From the NCBI RefSeq assembly GCF_058153355.1, contig NZ_CM177019.1: a stretch of 64,000 nucleotides of DNA; one strand, written 5' to 3'. The position numbers are program-made. Position 1 is the stretch's first letter. The number at the start of each line of letters is the position of its first letter. Below, one piece after another: positions 17,501-23,500 of this stretch.

Positions 17501-20500
17501 GCGCAGTGGACGTTCAAGCAGCCAGGTTTTACCGTCGAGTGTCAGCGTCTGTTTGCCTTCCTCTACGACGGTGCCGACACCAGTTGGCGTGAGAAAACCA
17601 CCAAGTCCAGCTCCACCACAGCGAATTTGCTCAATCAATGTACCTTGCGGTACGAGAACGACCTCCATTTCGCCAGAAATCATGCGCCGTCCGGTTTCCG
17701 GGTTGGTGCCGATATGTGAAGCAATTACTTTGCGGACTCGACCATTGACGATGAGCGGACCGATGCCGGTATCAACAAACGCGGTATCATTGGCTATCAA
17801 TGTCAGGTCGCGAACGCCAGATTCCAGTAATGCTTCCACCAGGCGGGATGGAGTGCCAATTCCCATAAATCCGCCCACCATGATGGTCATGCCGTCACGA
17901 AAGAAGCCGGAGGCGTCTTGTAATGTCATCAATTTTGTTTTCATTATTTATCCCTCTTGCATACACCGTTGTGGGTACAGTCAGGGAATAGCAAGGGGAG
18001 TGCCAGAATGAAAATGTTTGATATTGTTTTTTAACTTATTGAATAGTAAAGAATAAATAAGGTGGGGATTAAGAGGTTGAATGAACGGCTATGCAGAAAT
18101 TTGCGCACTGTGCAAATTTCTGCATAGCAAGTTTTGGCGTTATACATCCGCCGGATCGATACCGTATTCCTGGAGTTTATACATCAATGCACGGCGACTG
18201 ATGCCCAGCATTAAAGCAGTGCGGGTTCGGTTTCCTTCTTGTTGTTCCAGCACTTCCATAATGATGCGTTTTTCGACGCGTTTAATTTCCTCTTTTAAAT
18301 TACGCTCACCGACAGGGGCTGTTTTTGCTTCACCAGCACTACAGACTGGCTGACGAATCTGCGGCGGAAGATCCTCAGAAAAAATGATCGGGCCTGAATT
18401 CATCACGACGGCGCGTTCAATAACGTTGGAAAGCTCTCGAATATTTCCCGGCCATGACCATGCGGTAAGCAGTGACATTGCCATCGGATCGATGTCGATA
18501 ATATCGCGCTGATTCTCACTACTGAATTTTTGCAAAAAGTGATTAGCTAACAGGGAAATATCTTCCCGGCGATCGCGCAGAGGCGGCAGTATTAAATGAA
18601 TAACGTTAAGGCGATAAAAGAGATCTTCACGGAAGGTGCCTTCTTTCACCATTGCCTGCAAGTCGCGGTTGGTGGCAGCAATGATGCGGATATCAACTTT
18701 TATGGTCTGATGGCCGCCAATCCGTTCAAATTCCCGTTCCTGCAGAATGCGTAGTAATTTGGCTTGCAGTACCAGCGGCATTTCGCCAATTTCGTCGAGG
18801 AGCAGAGTACCTTCGTTGGCACGTTCAAATAATCCCTGACGCAAGGTTTGTGCACCAGTAAATGCGCCTTTTTCATGACCAAACAGTTCACTTTCGAGCA
18901 ACGATTCCGGCAGTGCCGCGCAGTTGACTTTAATGAACGGCCCCTTTGCCCGCCGCGAATTGTAGTGAATCGCTCTGGCAATCAACTCTTTCCCGGTGCC
19001 GCTTTCACCGCTAATCAAGACGCTGGCCTGAGAAAGGGCAATTTTGGCGGTGTCTTTGCAGATGTCCATCATCGCCGGGCTGTTGGTGAGAATGTGCCCC
19101 CATTGCCAGCTGGTGCTAAGTGCCTGGTGCAGATGACGGATCTCTTTTTTCATTGACTGGAGTTGTAAAGCGCGCTGAACGATTAAATTCAACTCATCGA
19201 GATCAAACGGTTTGATAACATAGTCGAAGGCTCCGCAGCGTAGTGCTTCGACGGCGGTTTCCACTTCAGCATAGGCCGTCATCAGAATAACGGGTGTCCG
19301 TGTCTCATGGCTGCGCATCTCCTTTAGTGCCTTGATGCCGTCCATCTCTGGCATGCGGGTGCGACAAGAAGTCGTCCAACATATTGTTTTGATAAATTAT
19401 TTATATAAAACCAACTATTCCATTAGTTGTAGCCTACTGAGGCAGGCAAAGCTGGTAACGGCTCTGTCTGAAGCCCTTGGGACAATGTAGCTTAGCAAAT
19501 ATTGCTTCAGTTAATCGTGAGAAAACCTGATCGCTACAAGCATCATGCGGCGAGAGCGCTAGGCTGGGCGGTATGGTTAACATAGTGAACTGTCGTTAAA
19601 CGTCGTAACAGAGAACGAGCCAAAGATGCTGATAGGCTTGCACCAAAAGGTAAGGGGTAAGGCTATTCCTGTTCGTAGTGGGAATACATGGACAATAACT
19701 CCCCCGGCGGATAGACAGAACCTAACCCGTTCTTTGTATGTTGGTCGGAACTTGGTAAGCCCGAATTCTCGCCCTAGTGGCAGGGGCACCGTAAGGCAAA
19801 CTGATGAGAATGCGGGTAAAGGAGGATGGAAAAAGCGAAAGCCGGACTGTAATCGTGCGGATAGAGGTTCAATATTTGCCTTAACGGGAAACCGTGCTGA
19901 CTTCCATCTGGTCTTTAATTGCGAAACATCTGCGAAGGTTTCTTTGGATGACATGTATGAAAATTACATCTAACAATGTAACTGCGGTCATCAACGGAAA
20001 AGGTTGGCATTCCATTAACTGGAAGAAATGCCATCAACACGTTAAAACCATACAGACAAGAATCGCAAAGGCGGCATGTAACCAGCAATGGCGTACAGTC
20101 GGTAGATTGCAACGATTGCTGGTTCGCTCATTCAGCGCCAGAGCACTGGCGGTGAAACGAGTTACGGAAAATAGCGGGCGTAAAACCCCCGGAGTTGATG
20201 GTCAAATCTGGAGTACTCCAGAATCAAAATGGGAAGCGATATTCAAACTCAGGCGAAAAGGGTACAAGCCCCTACCGCTAAAAAGAGTTTTTATACCCAA
20301 ATCTAATGGCAAGAAAAGACCATTAGGAATCCCCGTCATGCTTGACAGGGCAATGCAGGCCCTGCATCTGCTGGGATTGGAGCCTGTATCGGAAACTAAT
20401 GCAGATCACAACAGTTATGGTTTCAGACCAGCGCGATGTACGGCTGACGCCATTCAACAGGTATGTAATATGTATAGTTCCCGGAACGCCTCGAAATGGG

Positions 20501-23500
20501 TTCTGGAAGGCGATATTAAAGGATGCTTTGAACACATTAGCCACGAGTGGCTGCTTGAAAATATTCCTATGGACAAGCAAATACTCCGTAATTGGTTGAA
20601 AGCCGGGATCATCGAAAAAAGCATATTCAGCAAAACTCTCTCGGGTACACCCCAGGGAGGAATCATATCTCCAGTTCTGGCAAACATGGCCCTGGATGGA
20701 CTGGAAAGACTGCTGCAAAATCGCTTTGGTCCGAAACGCTCAAAAACATTCAGGAAACATCAGGTTCACTTCGTCCGGTATGCTGATGATTTCATCATTT
20801 CCGGAAAGTCGAAAGAACTTCTGGAGGAGAATGTTCTTCCGTTGGTGAAATCATTTCTTGCAGAAAGAGGGCTGACGTTATCCGAAGAGAAAACGGTCAT
20901 CACTCACATTACTGACGGATTTGATTTCCTTGGGCAGCACGTCCGACGCTTCGGTAGAAAACTCATAATCAGACCAGCCAAGAAAAACGTTAAACAATTT
21001 CTTAGCAAGATCAGAGAGACTATTGAAGGTAACCGAACGGTTCCTGCATGGGTGCTAATAAATCTGCTTAATCCAATCATCACCGGGTGGGCAAACTATC
21101 ACCAACATGTAGCATCGGCAGAGACATTTAACTATGTCGACAACCAAATCTGGCGCAAAATCTGGCAGTGGTGCAGAAGGAGACATCCCGGCAAAGGCCG
21201 GAGATGGATCTTCCGAAAGTACCACACGACAATAAAAATGTGTCATGGTCGATTTTATGGAGTCGATCCGGAGGGTAGGAAATATGTTCTGTCCCGGGCC
21301 AGCGACATCCATATTAATCGCTATATAAAAATAAAGGGAACGGCAAATCCATATGATCCCGAGTGGGAAACATACTTCGAAAGAAGGCTGGACTACTCAT
21401 GGAAGAAATCCCAACAGGGGCAGAAAAGGATTCTCGCTATATGGAAAAGGCAAGGATCGCGCTGCCCTTTATGTGAGCAACCGATTAATCGCGATACAGG
21501 ATGGAATGTTCATCATTTGCTCAAGAAATCTCTTGGCGGTAGCGATGATGTGAGCAATTTAGTCCTACTCCATCCCAACTGCCATCGACAACTACATAGT
21601 AATGACGCTGGTCTCCCACAAGGTGGAGGCTTATAAAGGCTTGAGCGGTATGCGGGGAAACTCGCACGTACCGTTCTTAGGGGGCGGCGAGACAGTAATG
21701 AATCGCTGCTACCCGACATATCCATCAACACCACGTCAGGGTGAATATCGGCAAACAGGTGTAATGCTGTGCGCCCGTTGTTCGCACAATGTGTTTCGAA
21801 TCCTTGAAGTGCAAAAGCGGTGCTCAGCATACGGCGAACATTATCTTCATCATCCACAATAAGGATGCGATTAATAGCAGTCATACAGTCTGATTTCCCT
21901 GCGGGTTGATCGGTAAAATAAGCGTGAAGGTTGCGCCGTAGCCCGGCAAACTGGCGACGCGAATATCACCCTGATGGGCATTAATGATGCGTTGACTTAA
22001 CGCCAGACCAAGCCCGGTTCCTGAGGCTTTGGTAGTGAAAAAGGGATCGAAGATCTTTTTTTGCAGCGAGAGATCAATGCCACTGCCGTTGTCCTCTATC
22101 GAAATGGCCTGTTGTGAGTCGCTATACTGCCAGGTTCGAATGCGAATTTTCCCTCGTGCACTGATAGCCTGGACGGCATTGATCAGGATATTCAGTAGTA
22201 CCTGTTTGAGCAGTTCACGATCGGCGTTAATCGGGCTTAATTCATTATCCAGTTCGCTTATGAAGTCGACCCGCGCTTGTACGCCGGCGGTTTGTACCAG
22301 TACCAGAGTTTCTTCAACCAATGCATTGAGGCTGACTTGTTGCCATTGATTGTGGCGTGGGCGTGAAAATTCGAGCAATTGCTGAATAACTTTGTTAATT
22401 GAATCGATTTCTTTGAGTACTACGGACAGATATTCCTGATGTATTGGGTCACTGGTTTGTTGGCGCAAGATCTGTACATAACCACGAATAGCCGTTAACG
22501 GATTACGTACTTCATGCGCCACGCCAGCCATCAGCTCACCCAGTGTGGCGAGGCGTTCTGCTTGCGCCATGCGGCGCTGGGTTTCTTTGCGGGCAGTTAA
22601 ATCAGAGAAAATCACCAAAGCACCTATCATTTCACCGTGCGTGTTATGAATACGACTGGTAGTGACACTGAGTTCAATGGTGCGGTCACGGCCTGGAAAA
22701 CTGATCTCCAGCGCCACATGTTCGGTGCCATGTTCCAGCGTATCCAGTACTGGACTGTAGAACGGAGTATTGTCGAACAACATGGAGTAAGGCTGCCCTA
22801 CCAGTTCATGACGTTGATAGCCAGTGATGACTTCTGCTGCCGGGTTCATGGTGGTTACATCACCCTGGCGGTCAATGGCAATGACGCCATCGGCAGCGTT
22901 TTCAATAATCAGATCGTTAAGTGTTCGCGTTTCACGCAGTGCCTGGGCGAGGTTGTTGACACTCTGACTAATTTGCCCCATTTCACCGGGCAATTGTGGT
23001 AATCGAGTGGGAATATTTTGCGCCAGAGTCGCGAGACCATCGGTGATGATATCTATATTGGCGCTCAGGCGACGGGAGAAAAGGACAATCAACAGCAGGC
23101 TTATCAGCAAACCGGCGGTGAGCACAATGATAATCCTCACATCCATTTTCCAGGCCTGGCGGCGAATATCTTCGGTTAATTCATTGGCCCAGATATAACC
23201 GAGGATTTCACCATTACGCTCAATGGGGATCATTGAATTCAAAATATCGCCGCGCACCTGCCTGCCTGAATAAATCAAAGGAGTATTTGTACGCATGACT
23301 TCGCGACCAGGGTGATCTGCGGCAATAGTAACGCCCACATTATTCTGATACAGCGCTGAAGGCGCGTAAGTGATTATCGCATCCAGCGTTTTGTTGTAAT
23401 AACCAGCGCCTATGCCAGGAAAGGCGTGAGTGATATTTTCAGTAATGGGAGCAAGTTCTGCATTCAGTGCGTGGATTCGCTCCTCACGTGGTAAGTCGTT

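Follow-up and report, generated by a model that had tools for sequence, protein, structure and literature searches.

A hok-associated plasmid group II intron inserted antisense into chromosomal atoC of Escherichia coli, with probable loss of AtoC function

Results

In a 64-kb stretch of contig NZ_CM177019.1 (the window; all coordinates are positions within it), the minus-strand regulator gene atoC is interrupted by a complete group II intron. The gene atoS lies upstream of atoC and atoD, atoA, atoE, and atoB lie downstream, and all of these open reading frames (ORFs) are full length. The intron occupies positions 19359-21717 on the plus strand (2,359 nt) and lies antisense within codon 56 of atoC. 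It starts with GTGCG at 19359 and ends with CCCGAC at 21717, both ends coinciding with the break in atoC, and the conserved group II ends GUGYG and AY are present as GTGCG and ...GAC. The remainder of atoC consists of a 5′ fragment (21718-21884, minus strand) with codons 1-55 and the first two bases of codon 56, and a 3′ fragment (18140-19358, minus strand) that runs from the last base of codon 56 to the stop codon. The gene is thus split between bases 2 and 3 of codon I56, directly past the DVVLMD motif. When rejoined, the two pieces give 1386 nt encoding 461 amino acids with no difference from the annotated AtoC protein WP_000125285.1. Furthermore, 300 nt from each flank, when joined, were identical to a contiguous 600-nt stretch of the intact atoC-atoS region of E. 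coli MFDS1022581, showing that the intron entered atoC without target-site duplication and without deletion. A preliminary description of this DNA had already placed the element on the plus strand between the same two boundaries and regarded it as a precise insertion between in-frame fragments summing to 1386 nt. The alignment to intact atoC, the exact intron ends, the plus-strand Rfam matches, and the contiguity of the joined flanks in intact E. coli all uphold this view.

Searches with Rfam models identified two ribozyme elements within the intron. RF02012 (group-II-D1D4-7, domains I-IV of type 7) matched positions 19411-19558 on the plus strand with 112.5 bits (gathering score 34, E = 1e-23); the match spans all 151 model positions (1-151), the model itself covering part of domain I only. 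RF00029 (domains V/VI) matched positions 21641-21717 on the plus strand with 65.5 bits (gathering score 40) over the full model, and its last position falls exactly on the intron 3′ end at 21717. Domain V was located at 21643-21676 (plus strand) by the RF00029 alignment and a predicted hairpin; it has the 34-nt sequence GAGCGGTATGCGGGGAAACTCGCACGTACCGTTC and contains the AGC triad. In domain VI (21680-21717, plus strand), the branch-point A is predicted at 21711, at a distance of 7 nt from the 3′ splice site; it is the only bulged A in the RNAfold structure of 21641-21717 (-40.2 kcal/mol). On the minus strand of 19300-21800 no ribozyme element was found even in a permissive Rfam search (E ≤ 0.1). 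As the ribozyme elements are on the plus strand only, the conclusion that atoC mRNA cannot splice out the intron is supported. It is also in line with targetron practice, in which antisense insertion is used for non-conditional disruption and the transcript bears the inactive complement of the intron (PMC3898094).

The ORF for the intron-encoded protein (IEP) extends from 19957 to 21636 on the plus strand and specifies 559 amino acids. The protein contains the Pfam domains RVT_N, RVT_1, GIIM, and HNH and an intact YADD, with the motif VRYADDF visible in the translation. It scored 369.5 bits against the NCBIfam model TIGR04416 for the group II reverse transcriptase (RT)/maturase equivalog (cutoff 300), and its coordinates match the ltrA annotation given by the Prokaryotic Genome Annotation Pipeline to the plasmid copies described below. 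Over its full length, the IEP shares 53% identity with the EcI5 RT encoded on plasmid pO157; EcI5 is a subgroup IIB1 intron with an RT of the CL1 lineage (PMC8643678). Because of this identity, and because the same two Rfam families are represented in both introns, the atoC intron appears to belong to an EcI5-like IIB1/CL1 lineage. The possibility that the element is EcI5 itself was rejected, as the two IEPs are only 53% identical and the copies recovered by megablast are not located on pO157. The assignment of domain V to 21643-21676 and of an RT/maturase/HNH ORF to this intron, both made in the preliminary description, thus hold, and its view that atoC carries an unspliceable antisense intron and is inactivated, rather than harboring a self-removing one, is favored by the plus-strand location of the ribozyme elements and the targetron precedent.

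For AtoC, the predicted outcome of the insertion is a loss of function by non-conditional knockout. The residue D55 in DVVLMD55 is presumably the canonical phospho-acceptor of the receiver domain; a literature search for this phosphorylation site of AtoC found no relevant paper in the library searched. Since AtoC is cut directly past DVVLMD55, AtoSC-dependent atoDAEB should be uninducible, and the strain is predicted to be unable to grow on acetoacetate or short-chain fatty acids. The intactness of atoS and atoDAEB fits a recent insertion event. The 5′ fragment opens a 123-amino-acid ORF (21513-21884, minus strand) that extends into the intron complement, where it meets a stop codon after 68 codons, and the longest ORF in the 3′ fragment (18140-19354, minus strand) encodes 404 amino acids starting with M58. 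Neither ORF had an exact match as a called gene in an index of 153 billion genes. A scan for promoters and terminators around the intron returned 2 promoter-like sites, compared to 4.8 expected by chance, and no terminators, and the 5 kb upstream of the intron contain no genes on the plus strand.

Application of Rfam to the whole window revealed a second intron copy at 60722-63080 on the plus strand, which is identical to the atoC copy at all 2,359 of 2,359 nt and lies 41 kb away from it. This copy is inserted in a repetitive extragenic palindromic (REP) element, 55 nt past the stop codon of yejK, in the orientation of yejK and upstream of rplY. Its insertion site reads TATCTGGCCTACAA^A (^ marks the insertion point), and in intact genomes its flanks (400 + 400 nt) form one uninterrupted stretch of 800 nt. 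By its position, copy 2 could be transcribed by read-through from yejK. An L25 (rplY) leader is present just downstream of it at 63472-63497 (minus strand). Other RNA features of the window are ordinary and comprise the small RNA MicF (30580-30673, minus strand) and a tRNA (57322-57395, minus strand). With the introns removed, the distance between the atoC and yejK-rplY sites is ~39.0 kb here and ~50.3 kb in the closest complete genome, corresponding to an indel of ~11 kb between both sites (window 21718-60721 versus NZ_CP169399.1 1706555-1756836).

By an exact-protein look-up with the IEP, the intron was also detected in two public sequencing runs, differing there by 1 nt. In a Logan contig of SRR31800506 (positions 1-3033), an unrelated sample, this 1-nt variant occupies a REP element that lies downstream of rsmC. 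The site is TATCTGGCCTACGA^A, and strain KE55 has the corresponding empty site ...CTTATCTGGCCTACGA^AGGGC. A Logan contig of SRR34880567 (positions 1-2360) contains exactly the intron plus one A, which points to a collapsed multi-copy repeat with differing flanks and suggests that the intron has proliferated in this sample as well. Of the three chromosomal sites known, two are REP elements ending in ...TATCTGGCCTAC(A/G)A^A and are similar to the plasmid hok home site described below. REP elements number in the hundreds in E. coli, and many of them end in ...CTTATC(T/C)GGCCTAC(A/G). The window also contains Rfam clusters of naRNA4, an RNA derived from REP elements and bacterial interspersed mosaic elements, at 26836-26912 and 38791-39100; these regions are REP-rich and unoccupied by the intron. 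Indirect support for a predicted retromobility of the intron comes from its two copies, 100% identical and each inserted precisely at a site of its own, and from the third site in another sample. The insertion would also document an active EcI5-like element with an endonuclease domain.

The distribution of the intron was examined by megablast in 5,426 complete E. coli genomes. Neither the atoC insertion nor the yejK-rplY insertion occurred in any of them (0/5,426), and no chromosomal copy of the intron was found in this set; the two full-length copies detected (97% identity) were both plasmid-borne. The element is thus not among the introns that are widespread in E. coli. A plasmid database contained 20 full-length relatives with 77-99.6% identity, mostly on IncF replicons, from E. 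coli, E. albertii, Salmonella, Citrobacter, and Enterobacter. Nine of the plasmid copies were fetched, and in eight of these the intron has the sense orientation and is located close to the 3′ end of a hok/mok type I toxin gene. This placement is based on annotation for seven copies and on identity to an annotated copy for one, and the ninth site is without an annotated hok. The closest relative, on plasmid pRHB33-C08_2 from sheep feces, differs from the window copies at 10 of 2,359 nt. Splicing of a hok-resident intron would be needed for the formation of intact Hok. A literature search on homing of group II introns into hok yielded no relevant publication in the library searched. On plasmid pCRST030_1 (NZ_AP045798.1), a second, different ltrA is located ~3 kb upstream of the hok-resident intron, and this IncF plasmid is thus host to more than one group II intron.

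To relate the intron to its insertion sites, domain I of ten copies was aligned against the 5′ exons, and pairing between exon-binding sites (EBS) and intron-binding sites (IBS) was tabulated over 12 copies or sites. A putative EBS2 (CAGAG) is located at 19609-19613 on the plus strand and would pair with IBS2 CTCTG at positions -13 to -9 of the 5′ exon (19346-19350). Over the 12 copies, this loop covaries with the exon (CAGAG/CTCTG, CATGA/TCATG, CATAA/TTATG), and in EcI5 the loop at the homologous position, ACCAG, is the complement of CTGGT at -13 to -9 of the EcI5 exon. The candidate for EBS1 is TCGTAG (variants TCGTA(G/A)) in a hairpin loop at 19673-19678 on the plus strand, which would pair with IBS1 ATGCGG at -6 to -1 (19353-19358); its last base covaries with exon position -6 in the 12 copies (G/C, A/T). 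The sequence TCGTAA at 19604-19609 was rejected as EBS1 since, unlike TCGTAG at 19673-19678, it shows no covariation with the exons. At the atoC site, the EBS2/IBS2 pairing is perfect (5/5), and EBS1/IBS1 would form five of six pairs, three of them Watson-Crick and two G-U, with one mismatch. At 12 of 12 sites the 3′ exon begins with A, which is compatible with a fixed U as EBS3, the element whose pairing with IBS3 replaces delta-delta′ in IIB introns. The intron class and the three exon-binding sites had been left to a structural comparison in the preliminary description; EBS1 and EBS2 are now putatively placed by covariation, whereas EBS3 was not located. The second copy at 60722-63080, the plasmid hok origin, and the EBS/IBS mimicry were absent from that description.

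The atoC site on the antisense strand, CTCTGGCATGCGG^A, resembles the home site of the closest plasmid copy, CTCTGGCCTACGA^A, and the comparison can be extended to ACTCTGGCCTACGA^A for the plasmid home site and TCTCTGGCATGCGG^A for the antisense strand of atoC. Mimicry of the hok home site would explain the choice of both site and strand, the orientation of the intron being antisense because the mimic lies on the strand antisense to atoC. The sequence TCTGGC at -12 to -7 is common to all four of the sites used by the subfamily of this intron (4/4). In the reconstructed intron-free window, the motif CTGGC-N-T-R-C-R-R^A is present at two sites, both of which are occupied; the motif was partly derived from these sites and is descriptive only.

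Discussion

The most probable explanation for these observations, which we hold with high confidence, is a recent ectopic retrotransposition of a plasmid intron that homes to hok into the chromosome, by which atoC was inactivated. The sequences themselves show the identity and integrity of the element, its exact boundaries and strand, the similarity of the target sites, the second identical copy, and the absence of the insertion from other genomes; from these we infer that AtoC function is lost, that a plasmid was the donor, and that retrotransposition was the route. The events would be recent, because the copies are identical, the junctions are exact, and the insertions are absent from all 5,426 complete genomes. 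An IncF plasmid may have brought the intron, which normally resides in sense orientation close to the 3′ end of hok, into the E. coli strain, where it would have been expressed and spliced from hok mRNA. The ribonucleoprotein would then have reverse-spliced into ectopic chromosomal mimic sites, including the one on the strand antisense to atoC, and the reverse transcriptase of the IEP would have copied the intron RNA into DNA.

Concerning the priming of this last step, GC skew is positive on the plus strand in 16 of 16 4-kb bins of the window, and the sense strand of both copies is therefore the lagging-strand template. A bias toward the lagging-strand template, with priming at the replication fork, has reportedly been observed for retrotransposition of Ll.LtrB and for RmInt1. 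Endonuclease-dependent target-primed reverse transcription, made possible by the intact HNH domain, is equally possible as a fork-primed route, two copies being too few to establish a bias.

Several observations weigh against the proposed history. No donor plasmid is visible within the 64-kb window. Moreover, base pairing alone had to be rejected as the site selector. At least 10 of 11 pairs together with A at +1 are possible at 12 sites of the intron-free window, compared to ~9 in shuffled sequences, and the yejK-rplY site pairs at 9 of 11 positions only. As the number of pairing sites is near chance level, further determinants must contribute, and the data suggest, for example, the sequence TCTGGC at -12 to -7 or protein contacts. 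The distal 5′ exon and the bases at +2 to +6 are unconserved among the sites, and neither EBS3 nor positions recognized by the IEP were located. Finally, the insertion could date to an ancestor of the strain, or the interrupted allele could have come by recombination.

The last point leads to the alternative that retrotransposition took place in another lineage and that the strain received the interrupted atoC allele from it by descent, homologous recombination, or transduction. The window contains no feature by which the event could be dated to this strain, and the intron with 1 nt difference is present in at least two unrelated sequencing runs. However, the insertion is found in none of the 5,426 complete E. 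coli genomes, the fragment ORFs are absent from the 153-billion-gene index, no difference separates the two window copies (100% identity), and the flanks are 100% identical to ordinary E. coli. We therefore regard an inherited or acquired allele as improbable.

Less probable still is that AtoC activity is not fully lost, the 404-amino-acid ORF starting at M58 being expressed from transcription that leaves the 5′ end of the intron and yielding a truncated activator that works independently of the receiver, as in some NtrC-family proteins. This ORF (18140-19354) is uninterrupted and retains the sigma-54 activator and DNA-binding domains, and receiver deletions of some NtrC-family activators, such as DctD and NtrC1, are constitutively active. 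NtrC itself, in contrast, requires phosphorylation for activity, and the M58 product would keep half of the receiver fold and likely misfold. Because no Shine-Dalgarno-like sequence precedes the ATG (GTCGCACCCGCATG) and no promoter-like site was found in the minus-strand stretch that separates the ATG from the intron, formation of a truncated AtoC from M58 is very unlikely. Misplacement of a repeat into atoC during assembly can be dismissed almost entirely: although assemblies classically go wrong at identical multi-copy repeats and short-read assemblies of related samples collapse the element (SRR34880567 contig), both junctions fall base-exact on canonical intron ends, the site offers pairing to EBS1 and EBS2 as well as the invariant A at +1, and the flanks of the two copies differ, each being sensible and contiguous in intact genomes.

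A broader but tentative idea, to which we give rather less than even weight, is that the hok-homing lineage uses chromosomal REP elements as a reservoir of mimic targets and spreads through them after arrival on an IncF plasmid, the insertion in atoC then representing collateral damage. The hok home site and the REP mimic sites may merit the attention of specialists, and the intron, with its putative EBS1 and EBS2, its endonuclease domain, and several natural target sites, is a possible scaffold for a targetron.

Among characterized introns, EcI5 from pO157 of E. coli O157:H7 is the closest parallel. Both introns match RF02012 and RF00029, share the RT-X-D-En architecture of the IEP, are plasmid-borne in E. 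coli, start with GUGCGACA and end with CUACCCGA(Y), and have the EBS2 loop at a homologous position. They differ in that no DNA similarity is detectable at the megablast level, that the home of EcI5 is a site on pO157 and not hok, and that the EBS1 and EBS2 sequences are others. Furthermore, the RT of EcI5 reads C-18, C-17, A-15, and T+5 (PMC8643678), positions that are unconserved at the sites of the atoC-type intron.

The atoC event itself represents ordinary behavior by a textbook mechanism and leaves the current understanding of group II intron biology unchanged; specific to it are the particular intron, the conserved regulator as the target, and the mimicry by REP elements. Rare ectopic integration guided by partial EBS/IBS matches is described for IIA and IIB introns (PMC3898094), and ectopic retrotransposition of Ll.LtrB and RmInt1 likewise involves non-cognate chromosomal sites with a partial EBS/IBS match. 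Ll.LtrB, however, is a IIA intron and RmInt1 is devoid of an En domain, whereas the atoC intron is tentatively assigned to IIB1 and has an En domain. Antisense disruption by targetrons likewise produces an unspliceable knockout (PMC3898094), although the atoC event is natural and not engineered. For group II introns of Enterobacterales, acquisition by plasmids, retrohoming from mobile elements to the chromosome, a recent proliferation in individual strains that left identical copies, and a patchy distribution were described by Leclercq and Cordaux (2012, PMC3522654). The same pattern of acquisition and proliferation would apply here, with the difference that one copy disrupts a conserved chromosomal regulator. 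According to that survey such a disruption rarely survives selection (PMC3522654), and the atoC insertion appears to be a natural and clean case of a bacterial group II intron disabling a gene of this kind.

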